Assembly (NCBI GenBank): GCA_938048755.1
Contig: CALIUG010000072.1
Location: 3,258 to 67,257, forward strand
Direction: 5' to 3'
Source: an uncultured Alphaproteobacteria bacterium
Lineage (GTDB): Bacteria > Pseudomonadota > Alphaproteobacteria > SP197
DNA: 64,000 nt
Under the pieces are notes generated by a model. That model had not been told where the DNA came from. It ran no database searches and saw only the letters and a program-made list of their open reading frames with translations. This document shows, piece by piece, positions 10,907 to 64,000 of the stretch (its first letter is position 1; each line of letters opens with the position of its first letter). A program made the translations under genes and the position numbers.

Positions 10907-10972
10907 CCGGCGATCACGCTGCGACCATCGCGCCCGGCAGGTTTCGGCTTGCCGGGCGTTGTCATTTCAGCA

Positions 10973-11356
10973 TCAGATCTCGACGAGACCAGCCAGATTG
11001 TGTTCCTTGCGAAAGGTCGCGGGTTCGATTTCGACGACATCCACCGCCAGCGCCAGACCCATACCAGGGTTCAGGCCGGACACGCCGTCTTTCAGGGCGG
11101 CAAACAGCGTGTCGGCGATCTGCTGTTTTACCGCATCGCTGCGACCCGCCAGGATGCGTGCTGTGACCATGGCAAAGCGATGCTCGGGATTGCCGTCGGC
11201 CACCAGAACGCGTTCACGCCGTTCGGCACGGCTGCGCAGGGCGAGCAGGTCGATGGTGGGGCAGGTGAGCGCGGCATCATGCAGGGCCCGGACCAGCACG
11301 TTGATGTCGAGATCGCTCTCCAGATTGGCGGAATGTTCCAGGATGATGTGCGGCAT
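10973..11356 (-). CDS. 5-carboxymethyl-2-hydroxymuconate isomerase (CHMI/HpcD family)
   Basis: MPHIILEHSANL start and overall similarity to E. coli HpcD (MPHFIVECSDNI...). 127 aa. Confidence 0.7.
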   Translation of the reverse strand: MPHIILEHSANLESDLDINVLVRALHDAALTCPTIDLLALRSRAERRERVLVADGNPEHRFAMVTARILAGRSDAVKQQIADTLFAALKDGVSGLNPGMGLALAVDVVEIEPATFRKEHNLAGLVEI

Positions 11357-11368
11357 GGTCGGGGCTCC

Positions 11369-12112
11369 TCAGGGCAGAGGCCACAGGATGCAGGCATCCG
11401 CGGCACAGGCATCCAGGGCAGAATTGGTTTGCGGGCCGGCAATCCCGTCGGGGGGGCCAGGATCGTATCCTGCGTCGATCAGGGCCTGCTGATACTTCGC
11501 AACGCCTTCCATGCCATGGAGTGAAAGTGCGCGTCTGAATTCGGCTGACGCCTCTTCTCTCCTGCCCAGGGCGGCCTGAATGTGCGCCAGCGTATCGACC
11601 GCGCGCACCTCATCGGGCGCCAGCCGCAACGCTTCGCGGACATCCTCCAGGGCATGCTGCGGGTCGCCGTTCAGCAGGGCAATCCAGGCGCGCGTGTTCC
11701 AGGCGGGGTGAAAGTCCGCGTCGGCCGCCAAGGCCGCATCCATCGCGCGTGTTGCTTCGTCCAGACGCCGCTGCTTCATCAGGGCGCGTCCCAGACGGTG
11801 ATGCGCCATGGCAAGCTCTCCGGCCTCAAGTCCGCCATTCTCGATGCACAGGTCATAGAGCTTTTCTGCCTGGCGCCACGCGCTCTCTTCCATCTTTGCA
11901 TGGCCCCGGTCGCACCAGGTCAGGTCGCCAGCCCGCGCAGGCATGTCGATCCAGACACCCACCGACAGGATGCCCACCATCGCCAGAAGCGTGCTGCGGG
12001 TAAGTCGTCTGATCGGGGCATGGTCCATGCCCGATCGTGCCATGAAATCAAACAGATTGCAGCGTCCAGGCTTCAGGGTGCAATCCAGGCACTGCCAAGC
12101 CGAAAATTTCAT
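11369..12112 (-). CDS. TPR-repeat protein with C-terminal peptidoglycan-binding (PG_binding_1) domain
   Basis: Internal TPR-like helices, and a C-terminal YQQALIDAGYDPGPPDGIAGPQTNSALDA motif typical of PG-binding domain 1. An N-terminal hydrophobic segment is present. The true start may be internal. Confidence 0.55.
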   Translation of the reverse strand: MKFSAWQCLDCTLKPGRCNLFDFMARSGMDHAPIRRLTRSTLLAMVGILSVGVWIDMPARAGDLTWCDRGHAKMEESAWRQAEKLYDLCIENGGLEAGELAMAHHRLGRALMKQRRLDEATRAMDAALAADADFHPAWNTRAWIALLNGDPQHALEDVREALRLAPDEVRAVDTLAHIQAALGRREEASAEFRRALSLHGMEGVAKYQQALIDAGYDPGPPDGIAGPQTNSALDACAADACILWPLP

Positions 12113-51751: not shown

Positions 51752-53320
51752 GTGCCTCTCTTTGACGCTTACCTGATGGTCGACTGGAGTTCGGAGACGA
51801 AACCCAAGACCGGCAAGGATTCGATCTGGCTGGCGCTTGCTGAGCGCACGCCGGCCGGTCTGCGTCTGCATGCGCTGGAGAATCCCGCGACCCGTGCTGA
51901 GGCACGGGAACGTCTGGCAGACATGCTGGATGGCCTGATCCGGCGCAGGCGGCGGGTCCTGGTCGGTTTTGACTTTCCGTTTGGTTACTCCAGCGGCACG
52001 GCTTCTGCGCTGGGCCTCAAAGGTGCGCCGTGGCGCGCGACGTGGTCCGCGCTGTCGCAGGCCGTGGAAGATCGCCCGGACAATGCCAACAACCGATTCG
52101 AGGCAGCAGACGTTCTGAACCGCCGCATGGGGTTCCGCGAGGGGCCATTCTGGGGCCATCCGGTCGGGCGCAGCTATGCAAATCTGGAGATGACGCGGCC
52201 CGTCTATGACGGCGGCCTGGATGAAAAACGGGTCTGTGAAACCGTGATCTCCGGGCCCCAGTCGATCTGGAAACTGGCCGGTGTCGGTTCGGTAGGCGGC
52301 CAGGTGCTCACGGGTCTGCCGGTCGTCCATGCCCTGCGCCGTGACGCCAGACTGAAAAGCCATGCGCGGGTATGGCCGTTCGAAACCGGTCTGAAGCCCA
52401 TGACATCCGGTGCTCTCAAACAGCATCCGGTTGTGCTGGCCGAGATCTATCCCTCGCTGGTGTCACCGCGTTCGGCGAGCGGGCAGGTCAAGGATACACT
52501 GCAGGTCCAGGCCATCGCCGCATTCATGGCCAAGGCTGATGAGAACAGAACGCTGGGCCGGATGTTCGCGGGCATGAAGGGGTTGTCGGGCGACCAGAAG
52601 CGACGAATCGAGCGTGAAGAGGCCTGGATTCTGGGCGTCACTGAACCTGATACCCGGGCGGGCAAGATCGACATTGATGTCGACGCGGCGTTTCCCGGGC
52701 ATGGCCTTGCCTATCTCAACGACGGTCCAGCAATCTATGCTGAATCACGCCGCCTGATTGAGGCAAAGACCGACCTGTCGCGTCTGACGGACGATGAACG
52801 GGCTCTTGCCGTGCGTCTGATCCATACCTGCGGCATGACCGATATCGCCGATGATCTTGAGGTTTCCGGGGGTGCCGTCGCCAGGGGCCGCGAGGCTCTG
52901 ATCGCAGGCGCGCCGATTCTTTGTGATGTCGAGATGGTGGCTAAGGGCATCATCAAGCGCCGTCTGCCGGCATCCAATGCCATCGTCGCCAAGGTGGCCT
53001 CAAAGGCAGCGGTGGCACGGGCTGCGCGGCATCACACGACCCGGTCCTCGGCAGCGGTTGATCTGTGGGGTGACGCCATGGAGGGTGCCGTTGTCGCGGT
53101 CGGCAATGCGCCCACGGCCTTGTTCCGGGTTCTGGAAATCGTTGCAGCCGGTGGCCCGCGCCCGGCGCTTGTCATCGGCATGCCGGTGGGGTTTGTCGGA
53201 GCAGCGGAATCGAAACGCGCGCTCGCGAAGAGCGGACTCGACTTCGTGACCGTGCACGGGCGACGGGGCGGCAGCGCCATGGCTGCTGCTGGCGTCAACG
53301 CGCTGATGGGAGGAATCTGA
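51752..53320 (+). CDS. cobH: fusion protein: N-terminal roughly 300-aa uncharacterized domain (possibly DUF429/RNase-H-like) plus C-terminal precorrin-8X methylmutase
   Basis: The C-terminal approx 210 aa (from about 52680) match CobH/CbiC (LIHTCGMTD, ILCDVEMVA, GNAPTAL). The N-terminal MPLFDAYLMVDWSSETKPKTGKDSIWLA...VLVGFDFPFGY matches no cob enzyme known to me. Confidence 0.7.
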   Translation: MPLFDAYLMVDWSSETKPKTGKDSIWLALAERTPAGLRLHALENPATRAEARERLADMLDGLIRRRRRVLVGFDFPFGYSSGTASALGLKGAPWRATWSALSQAVEDRPDNANNRFEAADVLNRRMGFREGPFWGHPVGRSYANLEMTRPVYDGGLDEKRVCETVISGPQSIWKLAGVGSVGGQVLTGLPVVHALRRDARLKSHARVWPFETGLKPMTSGALKQHPVVLAEIYPSLVSPRSASGQVKDTLQVQAIAAFMAKADENRTLGRMFAGMKGLSGDQKRRIEREEAWILGVTEPDTRAGKIDIDVDAAFPGHGLAYLNDGPAIYAESRRLIEAKTDLSRLTDDERALAVRLIHTCGMTDIADDLEVSGGAVARGREALIAGAPILCDVEMVAKGIIKRRLPASNAIVAKVASKAAVARAARHHTTRSSAAVDLWGDAMEGAVVAVGNAPTALFRVLEIVAAGGPRPALVIGMPVGFVGAAESKRALAKSGLDFVTVHGRRGGSAMAAAGVNALMGGI

Positions 53321-54525
53321 TGACACCCTGGCTGTCTCTTGTGGGCCTTGGCGAGGATGGACTGGAAGGACTCTCCCCGGCTGCGCGCGAACTGGTTGAT
53401 CAGGCCGAGGTCGTGGTCGGTGGCACGCGCCATCTGGAACTGCTGGGCGAGACCCGGGCGCAGACACTGACCTGGGAAAGCCCGCTCAAGAAAACGGTCG
53501 AGCGCCTGGCTGAACTTCAGGGGCAGAAGGTCTGCGTGCTCGCCACCGGCGACCCCATGGCCTATGGCATCGGTGTCACCCTGATGCGCCGGTTCGGGCG
53601 CGAGGCCGTTTTTGTCCTTCCGGGAATCTCGGCCTTCACCCTGGCCTGTGCCCGGCTGGGCTGGCCGCTTGCCGAGACCGTGCAGCTCACGCTTCATGGT
53701 CGGCCGCTGGACCTGCTGAACGCCCATCTGATGCCGGGTCTGCGCCTGCTGATCCTGTCCGAAGATGCAACAACACCAGCCAAGGTCGCGATGCGGCTCA
53801 AGGAGGCCGGTTTCGGGCCAAGCGTGATGCATGTCCTGTGTCACATGGGTGGTCCCCGCGAACGCTGCCTCAGTGGAACGGCAGCGGAGGGAGTCGAGGG
53901 CGACGTGGACGATCTCAATACCCTGGCGATTGAACTGGTTACCGAGCCCGGCGCTGCCGTGCACGCGCGCACGCCAGGCCTGCCCGATGATGCCTTTGAG
54001 CACGATGGGCAGATGACCAAACGCGAGGTGCGCGCCGCAACCCTGGCAGCCCTTGCGCCGATGCCCGGTCAGTTGCTCTGGGATGTCGGCTCGGGCTGTG
54101 GTTCCGTCGCGATCGAATGGATGCGCGCGGCAGACCGGGCCTGCGCCATGGCCATCGAACGTCATGAAGGCCGGCGGGCCATGACCGCGCGCAATGCGGC
54201 AAACCTGGGTGTACCAACCCTGAAGCTTGTTGCCGGCAGCGCACCGGAAGCCCTGGAAGGCCTGGCCACGCCGGATGCGGTTTTTGTCGGCGGCGGCGTC
54301 GCCGGCGACGGTGTCGCACAGACCTGCTGGGATACCCTTGCGCCGGGCGGACGTCTGGTTGCCAATGCGGTCACGCTGGAAAGCGAGCATGCTCTTTTCC
54401 ATCTCCATGAACGTCTGGGCGGTGAACTTGTGCGTCTCTCGGTTGTACGGGCCGCACCGGTCGGCGGCCTGACGGGATGGCGCCCTCTCATGCCGGTAAC
54501 ACAATGGCGGATCATCAAATCATGA
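53320..54525 (+). CDS. cobL: precorrin-6Y C5,15-methyltransferase (decarboxylating), CbiE+CbiT fusion type
   Basis: N-terminal tetrapyrrole methylase domain and C-terminal class I SAM-methyltransferase domain (VGSGCGSVAIE). Confidence 0.85.
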   Translation: MTPWLSLVGLGEDGLEGLSPAARELVDQAEVVVGGTRHLELLGETRAQTLTWESPLKKTVERLAELQGQKVCVLATGDPMAYGIGVTLMRRFGREAVFVLPGISAFTLACARLGWPLAETVQLTLHGRPLDLLNAHLMPGLRLLILSEDATTPAKVAMRLKEAGFGPSVMHVLCHMGGPRERCLSGTAAEGVEGDVDDLNTLAIELVTEPGAAVHARTPGLPDDAFEHDGQMTKREVRAATLAALAPMPGQLLWDVGSGCGSVAIEWMRAADRACAMAIERHEGRRAMTARNAANLGVPTLKLVAGSAPEALEGLATPDAVFVGGGVAGDGVAQTCWDTLAPGGRLVANAVTLESEHALFHLHERLGGELVRLSVVRAAPVGGLTGWRPLMPVTQWRIIKS

Positions 54526-55229
54526 CCAAAGGAACCCTTTATGGTCTGGGTGTCGGTCCCGGCGATCCCGAGCTCATCACGCTGAAGGCCCATCGACTGC
54601 TGACCCATGCTCCCGTGCTTGCCTATCCGGCACCGGAACATGGTGACAGTCTGGCGCGGAGCATCGTGGCGTCGCATCTGAGCGGCGAGCAGACCGAGAT
54701 TGCGATCCGCATGCCGCTGGACCTGAACCGGTTTCCGGTCGAGGCCGTTTATGATCAGGCAGCGATCGACATTGCCGAACATCTGGATGCCGGACGGGAT
54801 GTTGCTGCGATCTGTGAAGGTGACCCGTTTTTCTATGGCAGCTTCATGTATCTCTTCGGCCGGCTGGCCGACCGGCATGAGGTCGTCGTGGTCCCCGGCG
54901 TCTCGTCACTCATGGCCTGCCCGGCCGCTGCCGGCGCGCCCCTTGCCGCGCGCGACGATGCCCTGCTGATTTGTCCGGGCATCATGGACGAAGCGGTCAT
55001 GCGCGAGCGTCTGGCGAATGTGGAAGCCGCTGTCGTCATCAAGGTCGGCCGTCACCTCGACAAGGTGCGCCGCGTGCTCACGGCGTTGGATCTTGTGGAG
55101 CATGCCCATTATGTCGAGCACGCCACCATGGCCGATCAGGTCGTATTGCCCTTTTCCGAAATCGATGCGGCAAAGGCGCCCTATTTTTCGATGGTGCTGA
55201 TCCATCGGCGTGGAGAGGCATGGCGATGA
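54525..55229 (+). CDS. cobI: precorrin-2 C20-methyltransferase
   Basis: LYGLGVGPGDPELITLKA signature. ATGA overlap with cobL. An alternative start at 54504 is possible. Confidence 0.85.
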   Translation, partial: TKGTLYGLGVGPGDPELITLKAHRLLTHAPVLAYPAPEHGDSLARSIVASHLSGEQTEIAIRMPLDLNRFPVEAVYDQAAIDIAEHLDAGRDVAAICEGDPFFYGSFMYLFGRLADRHEVVVVPGVSSLMACPAAAGAPLAARDDALLICPGIMDEAVMRERLANVEAAVVIKVGRHLDKVRRVLTALDLVEHAHYVEHATMADQVVLPFSEIDAAKAPYFSMVLIHRRGEAWR

Positions 55230-57037
55230 ATGTTCCAACAGGTGCTGCGGTTCTGTGTCTTGGTCCTTCGGGACTAGCTGCTGCGAACCGTCTGGTTGCT
55301 GCCCTGCCTGATGCCAGTCTTCATGGCTATGGGTCACGGGTGGAGGGCACCGATGTGGTGTTCGAGAACACCATGGACCATGTCGCAACGCTGTTTGCGG
55401 CAGGCATTCCGGTCGTGGGCGTTTGTGCCGCCGGCATTCTGATTCGTGCCGTGGCGCCCCTTCTTTCCGACAAGACGCGCGAAAGTGCCGTGGTCGCGGT
55501 GGCCGAGGATGGTGCCAGCGCCGTTCCGCTGCTGGGCGGTCATCATGGCGCCAACGCACTGGCCCGCGCCTGTGCCGGCGTGTTCGAGGGGCATGTCGCG
55601 GTCACGACCGCGGGTGACGTGCGCTTTGATGGCGCGCTGGATGACCCGCCGCCGGGCTGGCGCATCGCCAATCCTGAGATGGCAAAACCGGTGATGGCCG
55701 ATCTGCTGGCAGAAAAGCCGGTTGCGCTTTGCATAGAGGCTGGTGAAGCGGACTGGCTGCGCAACTCCGGCATGGCGTTTGGAGAAACGGGCGATCATGC
55801 CGTTGCGGTGACCGACCGTGCCCTGCGGCCCGATGGCCGGACGCTGGTCATGCATCCGCCGGTCCTGGCCCTGGGCGTGGGATGTGAACGTGACTGTGAG
55901 CCCGGTGAGCTGATCGCCCTGGTGCGCGAAACGCTCAAATCAGAGCGCCTTGCCGAAGGCGCGATTGCCTGTGTCGCCAGCATTGACCTGAAGGGTGATG
56001 AACCAGCCGTGCTGGCCGTTGCCAACATGCTGGGTGTTTCCCTGGTCCTATTCGATGCGCCAAGGCTGGAGGCCGAAGCGCCGCGCCTTGCCAATCCTTC
56101 CGATGTGGTGTTTGCCGAAGTCGGGTGCCATGGCGTCAGTGAGGGGTCCGCGTTGGCCGCGGCGGGCCAGGAGGGTTCGCTGGTCGTGCCCAAGAAGAAG
56201 TCACGGCGTGCCACATGTGCCGTTGCGCGCGCTGCCAAGGATATCGACGTCTCAACGACTGGCCGACGGCGTGGCCATCTTTCGCTGGTCGGTCTGGGTC
56301 CGGGCGATGCAGCCCTGCGCACGCCTGAAGCAAGCCGTGCCATTGCCGCGGCCAGCGATGTCGTGGGTTATGGTTATTATCTCGACCTTGCCGGTCCGTT
56401 GATGCGCGGCAAGGAACGTCATGATTTCGGCCTGGGCCAGGAGACGGAGCGATGCCGTTTCGCACTCGATCTGGCGGGTCAGGGCAGACAGGTGGCGTTG
56501 CTCTGTTCCGGCGATCCCGGCATCTATGCCATGGCCAGCCTGGTCTATGAGCTTCTTGATCTCGAGGACGCACAGCCCTGGCGCAGCGTCGGGATCGACG
56601 TCGTGCCGGGCGTTTCGGCCCTGCAGGTTGCTTCGGCGCGGGCCGGTGCGCCGTTCGGCCATGACTTCTGCGCCATCTCGCTTTCGGACCTGCTGACCCC
56701 ACGCGAGGTCATCATGCGCCGCGTGCGTGCAGCCGGTGAAGGCGACTTTGCCATTGCCTTCTACAATCCTGTCTCCATGCGCAGGCGCGATCAGCTGGCT
56801 GAGGCACGGACCATCCTGCTGGAACACCGGCCCGGCGATACGCCTGTCATGATCGGCCGCCTGTTGGGTCGTGAAGGCGAAGCCATGGCGCATACCACGC
56901 TTGCCGAGCTGGAAGTCGACGATGTCGACATGATGAGCGTGGTGCTGATCGGCTCCAGCACATCCCGGCGGATCAACCATCTCGGCCAGCCCAATGTTTA
57001 CACCCCGCGTGGTTACGCGAAGAAAAGAGAGACCTGA
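55226..57037 (+). CDS. cobJ: fusion: CbiG (N- and C-terminal/CobE-like domains) plus precorrin-3B C17-methyltransferase CobJ
   Basis: aa 1-340 carry CbiG_N (VVGVCAAGILIRAVAPLLSDK...LLGGHHGANALA) and a CobE-like module (LALGVGCER...ASIDLKGDEPAVLAVANMLGVSLVLF). From about 56265 the tetrapyrrole methylase GHLSLVGLGPGD...CSGDPGIY follows. ATGA overlap with cobI. Confidence 0.85.
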   Translation: MNVPTGAAVLCLGPSGLAAANRLVAALPDASLHGYGSRVEGTDVVFENTMDHVATLFAAGIPVVGVCAAGILIRAVAPLLSDKTRESAVVAVAEDGASAVPLLGGHHGANALARACAGVFEGHVAVTTAGDVRFDGALDDPPPGWRIANPEMAKPVMADLLAEKPVALCIEAGEADWLRNSGMAFGETGDHAVAVTDRALRPDGRTLVMHPPVLALGVGCERDCEPGELIALVRETLKSERLAEGAIACVASIDLKGDEPAVLAVANMLGVSLVLFDAPRLEAEAPRLANPSDVVFAEVGCHGVSEGSALAAAGQEGSLVVPKKKSRRATCAVARAAKDIDVSTTGRRRGHLSLVGLGPGDAALRTPEASRAIAAASDVVGYGYYLDLAGPLMRGKERHDFGLGQETERCRFALDLAGQGRQVALLCSGDPGIYAMASLVYELLDLEDAQPWRSVGIDVVPGVSALQVASARAGAPFGHDFCAISLSDLLTPREVIMRRVRAAGEGDFAIAFYNPVSMRRRDQLAEARTILLEHRPGDTPVMIGRLLGREGEAMAHTTLAELEVDDVDMMSVVLIGSSTSRRINHLGQPNVYTPRGYAKKRET

Positions 57038-57038
57038 C

Positions 57039-57809
57039 ATGACGGTTCATTTCATCGGAGCAGGGCCCGGCGCGCCCGACCTCATTACCGTGCGTGCGCT
57101 CAACCTGATCAAGGCCTGCCCGATCGTGCTGTATGCCGGCTCCCTGGTGCCCGAAGGCGTCATTGAACAGGCCGACCCCGCAGCGACGGTGATCGATACG
57201 GCACCGCTCCATCTCGACGAGATCATCGAGCTGATGCGTGAGGCCCACGAACGCGGACAGAATGTGGCGCGCGTCCATTCCGGCGACCCTTCGCTTTATG
57301 GCGCCATTGCCGAACAGATCCGCCGTCTGGACGACCTTGAAATCGACTATGACGTGACGCCGGGCGTGCCGGCCTTTGCCGCTGCGGCTGCTGCCCTGCA
57401 GACCGAGCTGACGCTGCCCGATGTCAGCCAGACCGTGATCCTGACGCGCACGGCCGTGCGTGCGACGGCGATGCCCGAAGGCGAAGACCTCACGACCCTG
57501 GGCAAGTCGGGCGCGACCCTGGCGATCCATCTCTCGGTCAACAACCTGGCCCGCGTCGTGCGCGAACTGGTCCCGCTTTATGGCGAGGATTGCCCCGTGG
57601 TCGTGGCCTATCGCGTGAGCTGGCCCGACCAGGCCTTCATCTCCGGCACGCTGGGCGATATCCGGTCCAAGGTGAAGGCTGCCGGGTTCACACGCACGGC
57701 ACTGATCCTGGTCGGTGAGGTCCTGGGCAATGCGAGTTTCCGTGACAGCCGCCTTTATGACGAGGCCCATCACCACGTCCTGCGGCCACGCAAGGTTGCC
57801 AGTGCCTGA
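57039..57809 (+). CDS. cobM: precorrin-4 C11-methyltransferase
   Basis: MTVHFIGAGPGAPDLITVRA and VHSGDPSLYGA signatures. Confidence 0.9.
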   Translation: MTVHFIGAGPGAPDLITVRALNLIKACPIVLYAGSLVPEGVIEQADPAATVIDTAPLHLDEIIELMREAHERGQNVARVHSGDPSLYGAIAEQIRRLDDLEIDYDVTPGVPAFAAAAAALQTELTLPDVSQTVILTRTAVRATAMPEGEDLTTLGKSGATLAIHLSVNNLARVVRELVPLYGEDCPVVVAYRVSWPDQAFISGTLGDIRSKVKAAGFTRTALILVGEVLGNASFRDSRLYDEAHHHVLRPRKVASA

Positions 57810-58124
57810 TCAGCCCTTGATCTGAACCATGCCGTCCAGGGTCCGGCATTCAAAAACCCTGATCGGGCGCGTCGCCGGTTTGCCGCAGGCCCGCCCGTCA
57901 CGGATGTCGAAACAGCCCTGGTGCAGCGGGCATTCGATGATGAAACCGTCGAAGTAGCCATCGACAAGGCTGGCGCCACCATGGCTGCAGCGTGCCGAGG
58001 TGACGCGGATACCGTCGGGGCCGTCATAGACGGCGAGCGGCTGACCCTTGTGCTGCGCTGGCGTGACGTCGCCGGGTTCAAGGTCGCCGACGGAGACCAG
58101 ATCAATCCACGCGCTCTCAGGCAT
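57810..58124 (-). CDS. Rieske-type [2Fe-2S] ferredoxin
   Basis: 104 aa. CSHGGASL...CPLHQGCF (CxH...CxxH). Overlaps the upstream desaturase gene by 8 nt on the same strand. Confidence 0.8.
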   Translation of the reverse strand: MPESAWIDLVSVGDLEPGDVTPAQHKGQPLAVYDGPDGIRVTSARCSHGGASLVDGYFDGFIIECPLHQGCFDIRDGRACGKPATRPIRVFECRTLDGMVQIKG

Positions 58125-59088
58125 CGGCGTTCACATGGGCGCCCAGGCGTTCGCGTGAACCCCGGATCTGTCCCAGCATGTCGCGATGGGCGGCAAGGTA
58201 GCCCCCGGGTTCGGCGTAGAGCTGGCCCTTCAGGCGTTCATGCAGCTTGGGCAGGGCATGGAAGGGAACAGAAGCGGCAAAGTGATGCTCGGCATGAAAG
58301 GACATGTTCCAGCAGAGATTGCGCCAGGGCCATGAGACCAGGCTGGTTCTGGTGTTGACGGTCATGTCCTTGGTATTGGGACGTCCGACATGTTCGGTCA
58401 TGCGGATGAACCGCATCACCGGCTCGCCCATGAACACAGGAAGGATCCAGAACCAGAGCGGCGCCCACCAGTTGAAGACGGGCATGGCAAGGGCCACGGC
58501 GATGTAAAGGGCCAGAAAGATGCGTGCTTCCAGGATCACCGCACCACGTTCTTCCTTCGGGATGAACCGTTTCTCGGTCGCGTTCAGACGTCCCAAGGCG
58601 TGAGCCACCAGTCCGGAGATCATCCCGCGCCAATAGGGTAGCGAGGTGATGTAGAGCAGGTGCCCGCCCACGGTGTCGGCGAGGGGAATGAGCTCGGGGT
58701 CGCGCCCCATGATCTGGGTGTGGGTATGGTGGTCGCAATGTTCCCAGCGGAAGTAGCGCGGCGGCACGGCAATCCAGAACCCGCACCATGTGGCAACAAC
58801 ATCATTCAGCCAGCGCGTACGAAAGGCGGTGAAGTGGATGCACTCATGCTGCAGGGAAAAATGGTGCACCATGATGATGCCGTGCAGGAACATGGCCGGG
58901 ATCAGCCACCAGGTGCCCAGGGCCAGCCAGACCAGCACGCCGGTTGTCGCTAGGGTGCCATACCACAGGGGCAGACGCATCAGGGCCGGCACATTGGAGC
59001 GGCGCATCAGCGCCTTGAGCTCGCGCCGGGTGATCGGCGCGTCAGCCCCCATGGCCTGACTTTGTGGTGTGAGAACCGTCTCGTTCAT
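58117..59088 (-). CDS. membrane fatty-acid-desaturase-family di-iron oxygenase
   Basis: Three His boxes (HECIH, HCDHHTH, HAEHH) and 4 predicted TM helices. 323 aa. Confidence 0.8.
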   Translation of the reverse strand: MNETVLTPQSQAMGADAPITRRELKALMRRSNVPALMRLPLWYGTLATTGVLVWLALGTWWLIPAMFLHGIIMVHHFSLQHECIHFTAFRTRWLNDVVATWCGFWIAVPPRYFRWEHCDHHTHTQIMGRDPELIPLADTVGGHLLYITSLPYWRGMISGLVAHALGRLNATEKRFIPKEERGAVILEARIFLALYIAVALAMPVFNWWAPLWFWILPVFMGEPVMRFIRMTEHVGRPNTKDMTVNTRTSLVSWPWRNLCWNMSFHAEHHFAASVPFHALPKLHERLKGQLYAEPGGYLAAHRDMLGQIRGSRERLGAHVNADA

Positions 59089-59179
59089 GGGGCAACCCTA
59101 GTCTCAAAATCAGAGGAGCGGAATATGCTCCGGCCCGATCTCGGGCTAGGGTGCCGACCTCACATCACACGAGAGCATC

Positions 59180-59638
59180 ATGACCGCAGAAGCGATCTAT
59201 TCCGTCGAAGTTCCAGAGAGCTGGACCGATCACTACGGCCACATGAACGAGGGCTACTACGTGGTTGCCGCCAGCGACGCTTCCTGGGCGTTTCAGGCAC
59301 TGCTGGGGATCGGCACCGACTATTACGATGCGACCGGGTTCGCCATGGTGACGGTGGAATCCCATGTCCGGTACCTCGATGAGGTGAACCGGGGTGAGGC
59401 CCTGACCTTTGACAGCCTGGTCCTGGGGCACGATGCCCGGAAGGTGCATATCGGCCACGTCATGCGTGTCGGCGACAAGGTCTGTGGCACCGTCGAATGC
59501 CTGTGGCTCCATCTCAATCACAAGGAAGGCGGGTTGGGCACCATGTCCGAAGCCGTGCAGGCCAAGCTGGCCGAGCACCTGGCCGATCCCGTTCCGGACT
59601 GGGCCAGCCGCCAGGTCGCCCTGAAGAAAAAGGCCTGA
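59180..59638 (+). CDS. acyl-CoA thioesterase (4HBT/YbgC hot-dog fold)
   Basis: WTDHYGHMNEGYYV N-terminal signature of the 4HBT family. Confidence 0.7.
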   Translation: MTAEAIYSVEVPESWTDHYGHMNEGYYVVAASDASWAFQALLGIGTDYYDATGFAMVTVESHVRYLDEVNRGEALTFDSLVLGHDARKVHIGHVMRVGDKVCGTVECLWLHLNHKEGGLGTMSEAVQAKLAEHLADPVPDWASRQVALKKKA

Positions 59639-59642
59639 TGTC

Positions 59643-60884
59643 ATGGCAAGAGCGAGCGACTTCATCGATCAGCAACGCCTGTGGGATCGTCACATGGCGA
59701 TTGCCAGGTTCGGCGAAACCGGCAACGGCGGCGTCAACCGTCAGGCACTGACGCCAGAAGACGGCATGGCGCGGGCAGCCCTGGCCGGATGGGCCGGGGA
59801 ACGCGGGTTTCGCCTGATCGCCGATGAAGCCGGGAATCTGTTCGTGCGCCGTGACGGCACCGATCACGATGCACCTGCCATACTTTCGGGCTCCCATCTC
59901 GATACCCAGCCGGCCGGCGGCAACTTTGATGGCATCTATGGCGTGCTGTCGGCGTTTGAAGTGCTCGAAGCGCTCGAGGATGGGGGGCTGGAGCACCGCC
60001 ACCCCATCGAGGCGGTTGTCTGGACCAACGAGGAAGGGTGCCGTTTCGCACCGGGTTGCACCGGCAGCCTGGTTTTTTCGGGCCAACACGAGATCGAGGA
60101 GTTTCTCGATGGTACCGCGCCAGACGGTGCGGTGCTGCGCGACGAGCTGGAACGCACGCTTGCCGCCACACCCGATGCCGAGCAGCGCAGGGGCGGCATT
60201 CCCATGGCCGGCTACATCGAAACCCATATCGAGCAGGGGCCCAGGCTGGAAAGCGAGGGGCTCACGATCGGCGCCGTCACGGGCATCCAGGGTGGCAGTT
60301 CGTTCGAGGTCACCGTCACCGGGATCGACGGTCATGCCGGAACCGTGCCGCTGTTGCAGCGGCGCGACGCCTTCCGCTCGGCCCATCAGATCATCGATGC
60401 GCTTCACCGGGATCTGGCAGACCCCACCGACACGGTGCGGTTTACGGTGGGCCGGTTTGAGACCTATCCGGGGTCGCCCAACACGATTCCGGGCAAGGTC
60501 ATTTTCACGATCGATTTCCGCCACCCAGATCAGGCGTTCTTCCGCGAAAAGGTCGACGGCATGGCTGCGTTCATTGCCGCCCATGCCGGCCCCTGTGATG
60601 TTGTGGTGCAGAAACGCCATGCCGGCGACCCGGCTGACTTCGACGAAAACGTGATTGCCCGCATCGAGCGCATCGCGGGCGAACTCGCGATTCCCGCCAT
60701 GCGTATGCCCTCGGGCGCCGATCACGACGCCAAGTACATGGTGCCGCTGGCCCCGACCGGCATGATCTTCGTGCCGTGCCTGAGCGGCATCAGCCACAAC
60801 GAAGACGAACGCGCGACCCCTGAGGACCTCGCCGCCGGCGCCCGCGTGCTGGCAGACGCCCTGCTGGAAATGGCGCGGGGCTGA
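59643..60884 (+). CDS. M20-family Zn amidohydrolase (N-carbamoyl-amino-acid hydrolase, allantoate amidohydrolase or beta-ureidopropionase type)
   Basis: SGSHLDTQPAGGNFDGIYGVLSAFEV and C-terminal HNEDE motifs of the AllC/carbamoylase clade. 413 aa. Confidence 0.8.
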   Translation: MARASDFIDQQRLWDRHMAIARFGETGNGGVNRQALTPEDGMARAALAGWAGERGFRLIADEAGNLFVRRDGTDHDAPAILSGSHLDTQPAGGNFDGIYGVLSAFEVLEALEDGGLEHRHPIEAVVWTNEEGCRFAPGCTGSLVFSGQHEIEEFLDGTAPDGAVLRDELERTLAATPDAEQRRGGIPMAGYIETHIEQGPRLESEGLTIGAVTGIQGGSSFEVTVTGIDGHAGTVPLLQRRDAFRSAHQIIDALHRDLADPTDTVRFTVGRFETYPGSPNTIPGKVIFTIDFRHPDQAFFREKVDGMAAFIAAHAGPCDVVVQKRHAGDPADFDENVIARIERIAGELAIPAMRMPSGADHDAKYMVPLAPTGMIFVPCLSGISHNEDERATPEDLAAGARVLADALLEMARG

Positions 60885-60907
60885 CACCCGGGAGCAAAAC
60901 AAAAGAA

Positions 60908-61116
60908 CTGTCGTCCTCCGGCTTGACCGGAGGACCCATGCACCGAACGAAGCCACACCCACGGTTCTGCGATTTGCCGCTATACAAGCCGGTCATAGAG
61001 ATCGTCCCAATCAGGATTGTTCTCTTCGACCGGCTGGTGCAGCGCCACCAAACATGACGTGGCGCTGTTGCCTGCAACACAGCATGGATCCTCCGGTCAA
61101 GCCGGAGGATGACAAG
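60908..61116. mobile_element. internally deleted, inverted copy of the GIY-YIG cassette: two 34-bp palindromic TIRs flanking only the last about 50 nt of a GIY-YIG ORF (minus strand)
   Basis: TIR ctgtcgtcctccggcttgaccggaggacccatgc at 60908-60941 and its inverse gcatggatcctccggtcaagccggaggatgacaag at 61082-61116. The internal minus-strand ...VEENNPDWDDLYDRLV* equals the C-terminus of the intact gene at 61422-61706. Confidence 0.75.
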
Positions 61117-61137
61117 TTGGGGGTGGGTCGCGGTGGC

Positions 61138-61305
61138 TCAACGCATACCTTCCTGCATCGCGGAGCCACTGTTGGTGGTCCAGGTCTGGTGGGTGGTGAA
61201 GGAACCTTCCTTGCCAGCTAGGGCTAAGACGATGGTGGCGATTTCGTCGGGCTGGGCGATACCCTGACGGAAATGATGCGGGGCCGATGCCTTAGGACAC
61301 CCTAT
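61138..61305 (-). pseudogene. 3' fragment of a second SDR gene (last about 50 codons with its own TGA stop)
   Basis: Minus-strand ...PDEIATIVLALAGKEGSFTTHQTWTTNSGSAMQEGMR* is about 70% nt-identical to the 3' end of the SDR at 61789-62532 (PDEIAAVALALAGKAGAFTTGQVWSVNGGSAMP*). Truncated at the TIR at 61311. Confidence 0.7.
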
Positions 61306-61310
61306 CAAAA

Positions 61311-61779
61311 CTGTCGTCCTCCGGCTTGACCGGAGGACCCATGCTGTATCCTCGAAGCCGTTTCACGCCACTCTGACAAGCTGGACCGGCACACCGGCAA
61401 GCGGCAGATTGTGCGTTAGCCATGGCCTACTTCGTCTACATTCTGGCCAGCCAGAAACGCGGAACACTCTATGTCGGCGTGACGAACGATATAGCCCGTC
61501 GCGCATGGGAACATCGCGAGGGAACTGTGTCGGGCTTCACCAGGCAGTATGGCGTGAAACGGCTTGTGATGGTGGAGACCTATGACGATGTGCGCGATGC
61601 GATCCAGCGCGAGAAACGCCTGAAACACTGGAACAGAGAATGGAAAATCGCACTGATCGAAGAGAACAATCCTGACTGGGATGACCTCTACGACCGTTTG
61701 GTTTAGCGCCATTGAACAAGGTGGGGTGCTGTTGCCAGCGATACAGCATGGGTCCTCCGGTCAAGCCGGAGGACGACAA
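61311..61779 (+). mobile_element. 469-bp cassette: small GIY-YIG nuclease gene bounded by 34-bp self-palindromic terminal inverted repeats (intact copy)
   Basis: TIR-L 61311-61344 (ctgtcgtcctccggcttgaccggaggacccatgc), TIR-R 61746-61779 (gcatgggtcctccggtcaagccggaggacgacaa). The same TIR recurs 7 times in the window. Confidence 0.7.
61422..61706 (+). CDS. GIY-YIG nuclease family protein (UPF0213/YhbQ-like), 94 aa
   Basis: MAYFVYILASQKRGTLYVGVTNDIARRAWEHREG: GIY...YVG motifs, and the conserved R and E of the GIY-YIG fold. Confidence 0.85.
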   Translation: MAYFVYILASQKRGTLYVGVTNDIARRAWEHREGTVSGFTRQYGVKRLVMVETYDDVRDAIQREKRLKHWNREWKIALIEENNPDWDDLYDRLV

Positions 61780-61788
61780 AGTGTGAGC

Positions 61789-62532
61789 TCACGGCATTGC
61801 CGAGCCGCCGTTGACGCTCCAGACCTGGCCGGTGGTGAAGGCACCGGCCTTGCCGGCGAGCGCCAGGGCGACGGCTGCGATTTCGTCGGGCTGGCCGACG
61901 CGGCCCAGAGGGATGTCGGTTTCGCGCGCCATGATCTCGGGCGTGATGCCGTCCAGAAGTAGGGGCGTTTCGACCGGGCCGGGGCAGACGGCGTTGACCA
62001 GAATGTCGGGGCCGAACTCCCTGGCCCAGACGCGGGTGAGGCCAAGGATGCCGGCTTTCGAGGCGCAATAGGCTGAACGTTCCTTCCAGCCGAAGAAGGC
62101 ATGGTCGGATGCAATGTTGATGACCCGTCCGCCTCGTCCGTGGGCTGTCATGGCACGGATGGCTTCGCGCCCGGTCAGAAAGACGCCGGTGAGGTTGACG
62201 CCGATCACCCGGTTCCAGTCGGCAAGCGAGGTTTCGGTGAGCAGGCCGTCATCGGCGATACCTGCGCTGGCAACGCTGAGGTCAAGGCCGCCCATCCGCG
62301 CGACAGCTTCCGCCACGCCTTCGGTCATGGCGGCTTCGGCGGTGACATCCAGCTGCAATCCGAAGGATTCGCCACCCGCCGCAGTGATGTGGTCCTGTGT
62401 GGCCGAGGTGTCGGCCTGATCGATCAGGGCGATCTGCGCACCCTCTTCAGCAAAGGCCCGGGCGATGGCCGCACCGATGCCGCTGGCCGCACCGGTGACC
62501 AGAGCCGCCTTGCCGTCGAGAAATCCGCCCAT
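61789..62532 (-). CDS. SDR-family oxidoreductase (3-oxoacyl-ACP-reductase-like)
   Basis: TGAASGIG cofactor motif, NNAG-like, and the catalytic S...YxxxK (YCASKAG). 247 aa. Confidence 0.85.
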   Translation of the reverse strand: MGGFLDGKAALVTGAASGIGAAIARAFAEEGAQIALIDQADTSATQDHITAAGGESFGLQLDVTAEAAMTEGVAEAVARMGGLDLSVASAGIADDGLLTETSLADWNRVIGVNLTGVFLTGREAIRAMTAHGRGGRVINIASDHAFFGWKERSAYCASKAGILGLTRVWAREFGPDILVNAVCPGPVETPLLLDGITPEIMARETDIPLGRVGQPDEIAAVALALAGKAGAFTTGQVWSVNGGSAMP

Positions 62533-62619
62533 GGGTTCTTGCCTTCAAGGTTGTGCTGGACGCGCGAAGCGTATCGGGATCATTCTAGACGAGATTGAAA
62601 CGGCTTGAAGGCTGCTGCC

Positions 62620-63549
62620 ATGACCCCAGAAGCAATCCTTGCGTTTCCTGCCCGCGTGCTGACCCAGAAACAGCGCGAGGCCTATTTCGAAACCGGTTAT
62701 GCCCTGGTGGAGAGTCTGATCCCTGAAGACGTGATCGACCACCTGAATGACGTGACCCAGTCCTTCATCGAGAAGAGCCGGTCCATGACCAAGAGCGACC
62801 GCGAACTCGATATCGGGCCCGGCCACACGCCGGAAAAACCTGTGGTGCGTCGCCTGACCGCGCCCGACCGGATGCACGATGCCTATTGGGAGTTCGCCAA
62901 CGGTATCATCGCCGATGCCACGGCCGATCTACTGGGCCCGGATGTGACGTTCAACCACTCCAAGCTCAACTTCAAATGGTCGGACGGACGCGACCAGGTG
63001 AAGTGGCACCAGGACATCCCGTTCTATCCCCACACCAACTACAACGTGCTGGCTGTGGGCTGTTACCTCAGCGATGTCAGCGAAGACGACGGACCCATCG
63101 GCGTTCTTCCCGGCAGCCACAAGGGACCGATCTTCGAGCATTTCGACGACAACGGTGTTTGGACGGGCGCCATCCGGGATGATGACATGGCGCGCTTTGA
63201 CACCGATGATGCGGTTTACCTGCCGGGACCCAAGGGCTCGATCACGATCCATCACAGCCGTGCGGTCCATGGCTCCAGGCCCACGACCCGGGCCAACGGA
63301 CGTCCCCTGCTGATCAATGCCTATGCTGCAGCCGACGCCTTCCCCTACACCAGCCCCAAGGCCTCGACCTCGTATCACTACCGCGACCTGGTGCGTGGCA
63401 ACCGTGCGACCTGGGCCCATCTCGACCCCGAACCCTGCCCGGTTCCGCCCGACTGGGGCGACGGCTACACCTCGCTCTACGCCTTCCAGGGCGGCGAAAA
63501 CGCGGAAGCCACCCCACGCGATCCCGGGTTCCGGGTCGCGGCGGAGTAG
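62620..63549 (+). CDS. phytanoyl-CoA dioxygenase (PhyH) family Fe(II)/2-oxoglutarate oxygenase
   Basis: HQD...H iron triad (WHQDIPFYP, HSRAVHGS) and length typical of PhyH or ectoine-hydroxylase-like enzymes. Confidence 0.75.
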   Translation: MTPEAILAFPARVLTQKQREAYFETGYALVESLIPEDVIDHLNDVTQSFIEKSRSMTKSDRELDIGPGHTPEKPVVRRLTAPDRMHDAYWEFANGIIADATADLLGPDVTFNHSKLNFKWSDGRDQVKWHQDIPFYPHTNYNVLAVGCYLSDVSEDDGPIGVLPGSHKGPIFEHFDDNGVWTGAIRDDDMARFDTDDAVYLPGPKGSITIHHSRAVHGSRPTTRANGRPLLINAYAAADAFPYTSPKASTSYHYRDLVRGNRATWAHLDPEPCPVPPDWGDGYTSLYAFQGGENAEATPRDPGFRVAAE

Positions 63550-63650
63550 AGAGCGCTTATGTTTGATCGCTGAGACGCCAGCTAGATCGAATAATTGACA
63601 ACTGATGATTTTTTGACATCTTCAGTGATCTACCTGACCGATAGGTCGAT

Positions 63651-64000
63651 ATGGAATCACTTCTCGAAATACTCGTGCCTATTTTTGCTGCGATTGCCGG
63701 TGCTATGGCTGGCCGAGCCACTTTCCCTTCTTTAAGTTTTCCGAGGCGACGTCTTCCAAACAATTTTGTAATTGTAATTAATGGCGCAAATTCAGTTGGA
63801 AAATCCACATACGCTCTGATGTTACAGAGGAGGTTTTCAAACATAGAAAAGGTTTCTCTCGACTGGATACGCCAGGGAATGAGAGATAATGACAGCGAGT
63901 CTGTAATAAATACTGCATCGTTCAATCCATTGCCTAAAATGGGAGTTCAGGAACATTTCATAAAGCAGTGTCAGATTCTTATGTCAGCAGTCTCCAATGT
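63651..64000 (+). CDS. P-loop NTPase (Walker A GANSVGKST), 5' part; continues beyond window; in a low-GC segment
   Basis: Open frame from ATG 63651 to the window end with no stop: MESLLEILVPIFAAIAGAMAGRATFPSLSFPRRRLPNNFVIVINGANSVGKSTYALMLQRRFSNIEKVSLDWIRQG... It is absent from the track because there is no stop. Local GC is about 40% versus about 65% upstream. Confidence 0.5.
   Translation, partial: MESLLEILVPIFAAIAGAMAGRATFPSLSFPRRRLPNNFVIVINGANSVGKSTYALMLQRRFSNIEKVSLDWIRQGMRDNDSESVINTASFNPLPKMGVQEHFIKQCQILMSAVSN

Follow-up and report, generated by a model that had tools for sequence, protein, structure and literature searches.

The described systems to which the locus reported here comes closest are the 2-phosphoglycerate-kinase (2PGK) family, the Zeta and PezT toxins, the CBASS and Pycsar effectors, and the single-gene islets or orphan horizontally acquired genes of bacterial genomes. 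In P-loop kinases, the aspartate that follows strand 2 serves as catalytic base and two arginines bind the anionic substrate; the two characterised members of the 2PGK family act on phosphorylated acids, which fits an assignment of one Asp and two Arg to these roles. In conflict systems, swapping of N-terminal effector domains is typical. According to a recent report, the DUF4062 domain, which will reappear below, is a TIR-like NADase that takes part in antiphage defence (bioRxiv 10.64898/2026.05.01.722283).

The locus to be compared with these systems lies at the right-hand end of the window, i.e. the whole 64,000-nucleotide stretch of alphaproteobacterial DNA that was analysed. A first-pass annotation, made from the letters of the window, had taken a fall in GC content at this place for the edge of a horizontally acquired island, starting with a P-loop NTPase gene and possibly devoted to defence (abortive infection, Abi) or to a zeta-like toxin, and had supposed that the system of interest may lie just beyond. 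As seen in sister strains, the low-GC stretch is an 844-bp foreign islet with a single gene. The best family match of the gene product is the 2PGK family, of which it appears, from its sequence, to be a divergent, membrane-anchored member, and the gene would be an orphan, recently acquired and now decaying.

Composition, extent and site of the insert

The last 450 nucleotides of the window (63551-64000) have a GC content of 42.2%, which corresponds to z = -7.4 when compared with all other 450-nucleotide windows of the 64 kb (mean 63.1%, sd 2.8, minimum 52.2%). The switch is sharp and takes place from 63550 on, immediately past the gene for a PhyH-family dioxygenase, whose TAG stop codon occupies 63547-63549. 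The annotation was right about the existence of a drop (from about 63% to 42%) and about its position right after the PhyH-family gene, but its start, given as 63560, has to be moved 10 nucleotides to the left. The features of the region, in window coordinates, are the following.

62620-63549, plus strand: core gene for a PhyH-family dioxygenase of 309 aa, bordering the insert on the left (Pfam PhyH, E 1.1e-21)
63550-64000, no strand: first 451 bp of the 844-bp low-GC insert; the remaining ~393 bp lie beyond the window and were read from L027 (10931-11774) and L028
63550-63650, plus strand: 101-bp leader, non-coding, in which two TTGACA hexamers lie (sequence; promoter scan)
63651-64000, plus strand: codons 1-116 of the 240 codons of the kinase gene, which runs off the window (translation; L027 reconstruction; allele P0137)
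63654-63722, plus strand: N-terminal hydrophobic helix (residues 2-24), followed by a basic PRRR; predicted membrane anchor (AlphaFold2; subfamily)
63783-63809, plus strand: Walker A motif or P-loop, GANSVGKST (residues 45-53); the family alignment shows no variation at G45, G50 and K51
63855-63884, plus strand: motif SLDWIRQGMR (family consensus TDxxRExLR); no variation at D71, R74 and R78 in alignment A4

The kinase ORF begins MESLLEILVPIFAAIAGAMAGRATFPSLSFPRRRLPNNFVIVINGANSVGKST at ATG 63651 and is still open, after 116 codons, at 64000; both its run past the window end and its Walker A motif, i.e. its being a P-loop NTPase gene, had been seen correctly. Over its full length, GC at third codon positions is 36%, against 78% for the PhyH gene. 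Of the promoter hexamers resembling ttgaca that had been noticed in front of it, two are literal TTGACA sequences (63595-63600 and 63613-63618), but neither possesses an acceptable -10 partner and a consensus promoter scan upstream of the ORF was negative. A scan of the islet against Rfam gave no match. On the minus strand, an ORF of 122 aa with a TTG start (63557-63925) lies antisense to the kinase ORF; it was treated as spurious because its translation is of low complexity and because homologues exist for the plus-strand ORF.

What follows the window could be read from a 64-kb metagenome scaffold (L027, ENA ERZ23498511), found by exact look-up of the PhyH protein of the window. Over the 11.4 kb that correspond to window positions 52620-64000, it shows 99.8% identity, the differences being 22 substitutions and a 1-bp indel. 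On this scaffold, low-GC DNA ends 393 bp beyond the position of the window end, GC is back to ~62% at about 390 bp, and a convergent MFS-transporter gene follows immediately with its stop codon. From stop to stop, the insert measures 844 bp (10931-11774) and has 40.6% GC (843 of the 844 bp counted); the kinase ORF is flanked within it by 101 bp upstream and ~22 bp downstream, and a second gene is absent. The next ~9 kb, past the MFS gene, hold ordinary genes with a GC content of 58-73% (AraC regulator, SDRs, Rieske oxygenase, peptidase M48, DctP). The same junction and ORF are present in four independent assemblies, L027, L028 (Logan SRR25654120), L031 (ENA ERZ23496362) and L032 (Logan SRR7479785), the last three sharing the right-hand junction of the first. 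With junction and ORF thus recurring in four assemblies other than that of the window, an assembly artefact is excluded.

A scan with the PhyH protein, restricted to one genome per species, returned 26 related loci in which the PhyH gene is kept; it is convergent with an MFS gene in four of them (L001, L002, L007 and L008). In the closest relative, L008, the PhyH and MFS proteins are each 96% identical to those of the window lineage, with 85-91% identity at the nucleotide level, and colinearity with L027 extends over 20 kb, the insert being absent: the two stop codons are there 5 bp apart (TAG-ggccc-CTA). The insert is also absent from L001, L002 and L007, where the spacing between PhyH and MFS goes from 10 to ~135 bp. 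These four insert-less relatives span 75-96% PhyH identity. Where the insert is present, both of the convergent genes that border it are intact. The foreign low-GC islet therefore lies exactly in what was a spacer of 3-5 bp between the convergent PhyH and MFS stop codons, its host being an uncultured marine alphaproteobacterium from the Rhodospirillales group.

Signatures of mobility were not found. No integrase or transposase gene was found within 10 kb on each side of the islet and no tRNA gene near it, and only chance-level short matches turned up when terminal direct or inverted repeats and a target-site duplication were looked for; the check for direct repeats, tRNA or integrase proposed along with the island thus came out negative. 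Nothing was found when the final 3 kb of the window were compared with plasmids by megablast, or the kinase protein with plasmids and phages by tblastn, and a scan of viral contigs with the family alignment detected no relatives; consequently, a plasmid or phage vehicle is without evidence. Judged as a genomic island, the insert has an unusual composition and is missing from close relatives; it does not comprise several genes, and it is accompanied neither by an integrase or transposase nor by a tRNA target or flanking direct repeats.

Several observations were made on the surroundings. In a MAG (OZ242015.1; L014 10737-12412), ~1.7 kb of DNA are found at the same PhyH/MFS site, next to a degraded PhyH gene (split match, N-terminus missing). 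We considered whether this was a second islet at the site and rejected it, as its GC is normal and its content unrelated; with this DNA and the degraded PhyH gene, the site nevertheless seems prone to rearrangement. About 2 kb upstream of the islet there is another small variable insert, of ~900 bp and 54-57% GC (window ~60890-61793, L027 8271-9174), carrying an ORF of 94 aa with a GIY-YIG domain (61422-61706, plus strand) and absent from the colinear L008; 7 of the 19 flank differences between window and L027 cluster in it. Farther upstream (window 52620-57040, L027 1-5190) come cobalamin-biosynthesis genes in a cluster (CbiC, a CbiG fusion, several genes of TP_methylase type) and then a Rieske/fatty-acid-desaturase pair. 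Such genes belong to ordinary core metabolism, and with them the position of the islet in a core region of the chromosome is confirmed.

Two readings of the insert other than a short horizontal gain may be weighed at this point. One is the multi-gene defence or toxin island of the first-pass annotation, acquired horizontally and with its main content downstream of the window. The sharp GC drop and the P-loop ORF at the window edge do look like the beginning of such an island, but three independent near-identical assemblies end the low-GC DNA 393 bp beyond the window, and the syntenic MFS gene and core genes come directly after. GC is thus normal again within a few hundred bp, a return that the annotation itself had named as speaking against its proposal; it had also named the case of a housekeeping kinase conserved in synteny, which is not what we observed, the gene being absent from four syntenic relatives. 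We can give hardly any credence to a larger island: in the sister strains, what remains of the insert past the window is ~393 bp, nothing is hidden there, and there is no reason for extending the search for a defence island at this place. It is also very improbable that the lineage inherited the kinase gene from its ancestors instead of gaining it, and that the relatives lost it by deletion. An insert devoid of a mobility signature is compatible with that history, but third-position GC differs from that of the host gene PhyH (36% versus 78%), the gene is missing from four relatives spread over a wide range of PhyH identity, and its closest homologue, only 38% identical, is on a contig of 34% GC. 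Horizontal gain in this lineage, as had been proposed, appears from composition (41% GC against 63%, with the corresponding gap at third positions) and from the four syntenic relatives that do not have the gene to be much the most economical reading.

The kinase protein and its relatives

Joining the window to the tail of L027, in the frame of the window, gives an ORF of 240 codons, and an intact 240-aa allele of the same structure exists in databases (P0137). All the invariant positions that can be read in the window are kept (G45, G50, K51, D71, R74 and R78), and the reconstruction retains G132, H164, R167, R171 and N217, among which G132 and R167 are invariant in alignment A4 and N217 is likewise invariant. 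By analogy with other P-loop kinases, D71 is presumably the catalytic base, with R74 and R78 presumably binding an anionic substrate. The highest-ranking family model is NCBIfam PRK04220 (2-phosphoglycerate kinase), with E 2.9e-14 and 53.2 bits for residues 36-199, aligned to positions 90-266 of the 306 of the model; there are also matches, all of them far under the equivalog cut-offs, to PRK12337, PRK12338 and PRK12339 (mevalonate-3-phosphate 5-kinase). Since the equivalog cut-off of PRK04220 is 343 bits and the protein reaches 53, it is a distant member of the 2PGK family and not an equivalog. The ATP-cone domain of canonical 2PGK gave no match, the N-terminus being occupied by the membrane helix. 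Pfam contributed only sub-threshold generic P-loop matches (AAA_18, AAA_33), and nothing significant was found in PHROGs.

In the AlphaFold2 model of allele P0001 (pLDDT 82, pTM 0.71), residues 2-24 form a helix and the P-loop kinase core has five strands. The closest PDB matches of the model, at TM ~0.5, are UMP/CMP, gluconate, adenylate and APS kinases and T4 polynucleotide kinase; a sequence search of the PDB found no structure of the 2PGK family itself. The kinase domain most likely faces the cytoplasmic side of the membrane. Because a Walker A motif, an Asp base, two substrate Arg, a Walker B-like DG motif and an HxxRxxxR lid are all present, the intact protein most likely transfers phosphate from ATP to a small anionic metabolite, on the inner side of the membrane.

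Relatives are few. When homologues were looked for in a word-indexed search, the 116-aa fragment gave nothing and the full-length protein only the gene's own allele. An exhaustive HMMER search among 1.84 billion representative proteins brought 136 relatives at E < 1e-3, 11 of which were at E < 1e-10, and the nearest one (P0002) is 38% identical. All of the 57 nearest homologues match the 2PGK model (best E 8e-107), while scanning metagenomes with the family alignment revealed only two true relatives. Members of the subfamily, at ~255-285 aa, have one hydrophobic helix at the N-terminus, followed by a basic stretch and then by the kinase domain, and share the motifs NGxSGVGKT, TDxxRExLR, IIEGVN, FxNLY, HxxRxxxR, RY..ID.IR and, at the C-terminus, I.N. 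Conservation of the helix was seen in P0002, P0003, P0004, P0006, P0009, P0014, P0017 and P0023. Other N-termini are found among the 57: an ATP-cone in four, P0022 and P0033 included, and fusions to a CAP12/Pycsar TIR domain (P0005), TIR_2 (P0039), a CHAT protease (P0016), DUF4062 (P0035 and one more) and a nucleotide cyclase (P0028). These fusions of 2PGK-like kinases did not turn up in a literature search. The membrane-anchored branch is a rare and uncharacterised one of a poorly studied family.

Gene neighbourhoods of the relatives vary. P0002 and its counterpart P0138 belong to a conserved three-gene operon with overlapping reading frames, made of a HIT-family gene, the kinase gene and an NTP_transferase gene in translational coupling (L029 132-2165; L040 1451-3484), on contigs of 34% GC; this operon looks like a small-molecule activation pathway. 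Next to P0009 (L033), there is a HIT gene immediately upstream, whose product is 38% identical to the HIT protein of L029, and IS elements and an NTP_transferase fragment are nearby. Other members are located in mobile or variable regions: P0139 (L034-36) has DUF6119, a RES-Xre pair and an integrase as neighbours; P0140 (L037) adjoins putAbiC; and P0006 (L038) has around it an integrase, an IS91 transposase and a ResIII helicase. One of the two metagenome relatives, helix-less, stands in a housekeeping neighbourhood between citrate synthase and peptidase genes. A search of the 101-bp leader and of the tail of our islet for HIT or nucleotidyltransferase remnants detected nothing above noise. 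The islet brought the kinase gene alone, and this gene is consequently an orphan, separated from its pathway.

Alleles in sister strains

Three alleles are found among the sister strains: an intact one (P0137, in L031 and L032), a frameshift allele (L027) and a nonsense allele (L028/P0001). A 1-bp deletion shifts the frame at codon 114 in L027, which could be an assembly error. In L028/P0001, GAG is changed to TAG at codon 207, with a loss of 34 residues, among them a conserved segment of the C-terminus with the invariant N217; this allele was seen both on a Logan contig and on an 89-kb contig. The 116 codons of the window are identical to those of P0001 and differ from those of the L027 and P0137 alleles. 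Given this identity of the first 116 residues, and given that P0001 is on record on the 89-kb contig, the gene of the window is probably the 206-aa nonsense allele, its sequence past codon 116 being extrapolated.

Taking L031/L032, with the intact allele, as outgroup, changes could be assigned to each lineage. That of L027 has one synonymous change, two missense changes and the 1-bp deletion; that of L028/P0001 has three missense changes, among them L162P beside the lid His, in addition to the TAG at codon 207. For the islet, where the recent changes number eight, this makes one synonymous against seven missense or disruptive changes, compared to 10 synonymous and 5 non-synonymous in the flanks (Fisher p = 0.027). 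The density of differences is also ~5 times higher in the islet than in the flanks (Poisson p = 0.008), in strains whose flanks diverge by 0.17%. L031 is separated from the other alleles by four synonymous changes and by four amino-acid replacements, mostly conservative, and this suggests some earlier constraint.

Small as they are, these counts point to a relaxation of selection on the kinase gene in this lineage, with loss of function as the probable outcome: a recently acquired orphan gene would now be decaying. One population has kept the intact allele, so that certain strains may still draw a benefit from the gene. We hold with good confidence, if short of certainty, to the account as a whole, in which an islet whose extent, site, absence from relatives, family and lesions are shown by the sequences would have coded for a membrane-bound kinase of a small anionic substrate and would have lost that activity. 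The locus offers a clean natural example of the gain of a gene and of its early decay, with empty, intact, frameshift and nonsense states in close strains.

Metabolism, defence and comparison with known systems

The possibility of a toxin or of a defence function was addressed directly. Zeta_toxin (PF06414) gave no match at E <= 1 with either the 116-aa or the 240-aa sequence, and no antitoxin gene of epsilon/PezA type lies beside the kinase gene, the islet holding no second gene. With 2PGK as best family match in addition, the idea of a zeta-like toxin has to be abandoned. Weak Zeta_toxin matches do occur in 15 of the 57 relatives, and in P0022, where this was checked, the match is confined to the P-loop. 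The check with a defence-system finder that the annotation had recommended was run with PADLOC and returned nothing significant: the best match in PADLOC-DB 2.0, PDC-S01 (E 0.011, 12.5 bits), covers the P-loop only, and the matches obtained among homologues are due only to the fused TIR or CHAT domains. Of the supposed defence or Abi islet, only hints at the level of the family remain.

Two accounts of the gene other than that of a decaying orphan deserve discussion. It might be a functional metabolic accessory gene of the lineage, with lesions that are assembly errors or tolerated variants. The intact 240-aa allele does have all the catalytic motifs, and the balance of synonymous and conservative changes that separates L031 from the other alleles is compatible with past constraint. 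We nevertheless find this account unlikely, for it has to accommodate two different disruptive lesions in two assemblies, one of them (the nonsense allele) present on the Logan contig as well as on the 89-kb contig, a recent tally of 1 synonymous against 7 non-synonymous or disruptive changes, and the missing HIT and nucleotidyltransferase partners. The other account supposes a stand-alone conflict gene (anti-phage, Abi or toxin), in which the P-loop domain would be a sensor or switch and the N-terminal helix the effector; the islet would in that case be a minimal defence islet of one gene, with a rapid turnover. It can draw on the interchangeable N-terminal modules, typical of immune effectors, that the kinase domain carries in the 57 nearest homologues, and on the fusion of two of these homologues, P0035 included, to DUF4062, a domain reported as antiphage. 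Homologues adjoin an integrase with RES-Xre (L034-36), putAbiC (L037), an integrase with IS91 and a ResIII helicase (L038), and IS elements (L033), and the family is rare and patchy, with presence, absence and inactivation varying between close strains. On the other side, the kinase module is without significant PADLOC match, no relatives were found in viral contigs, phage genomes or plasmids, the nearest homologue is in the metabolic-looking HIT-kinase-nucleotidyltransferase operon and another relative is between citrate synthase and peptidase genes, no paper linking the 2PGK family to defence was found, and the association amounts to ~7 contexts, without statistics. As the operon of the closest homologue points to metabolism and the contexts are few, we rate the conflict account low, i.e. 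as rather improbable for this gene. The broader proposal, that 2PGK-like kinases with a membrane helix form, together with their TIR-, CHAT- and DUF4062-fused cousins, an unrecognised single-gene conflict or Abi family, with the kinase domain as nucleotide-dependent sensor or switch and the N-terminal module as effector, is quite doubtful. If it was true, the 844-bp islet would be a minimal one-gene defence islet caught while being lost; in any case, the TIR, CHAT and DUF4062 fusions of related kinase domains are a lead that comparative genomics can test cheaply.

How, then, does the decaying orphan kinase gene compare with the systems mentioned at the outset? With Zeta and PezT it shares a small P-loop kinase fold, presumably acting on a small molecule, but it differs by its predicted membrane anchor and by the 101 bp of non-coding DNA that stand upstream, where an antitoxin gene would be. 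The likeness to CBASS and Pycsar effectors is one of architecture only, i.e. an N-terminal effector followed by a C-terminal nucleotide-binding domain. In contrast with these effectors, the C-terminal domain is an apparently active P-loop kinase instead of a SAVED, STING or cNMP-binding domain; there is no cyclase or other signal-producing gene near the islet, and the kinase domain has no PADLOC match. With the 2PGK family (COG2074; PRK04220/PRK12337; PRK12339) it has in common the Walker A motif, a motif of TDxxRExLR type (Asp and two Arg), an hhhhEG/DG strand and the HxxRxxxR lid. Compared to canonical 2PGK, the protein encoded at the window end has a membrane helix in place of the ATP-cone, and its identity to any other protein does not exceed 38%.

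As a genomic phenomenon, the locus is ordinary. Like other single-gene islets and orphan horizontally acquired genes, it is a short AT-rich insert, variable between strains, in an intergenic spacer of a GC-rich genome, and it shares with them a fast evolution accompanied by pseudogenisation. It differs in that repeats, an IS element, an integrase and a tRNA are all absent, and in being unusually clean, inserted as it is between two stop codons that stand 5 bp apart in the empty site.
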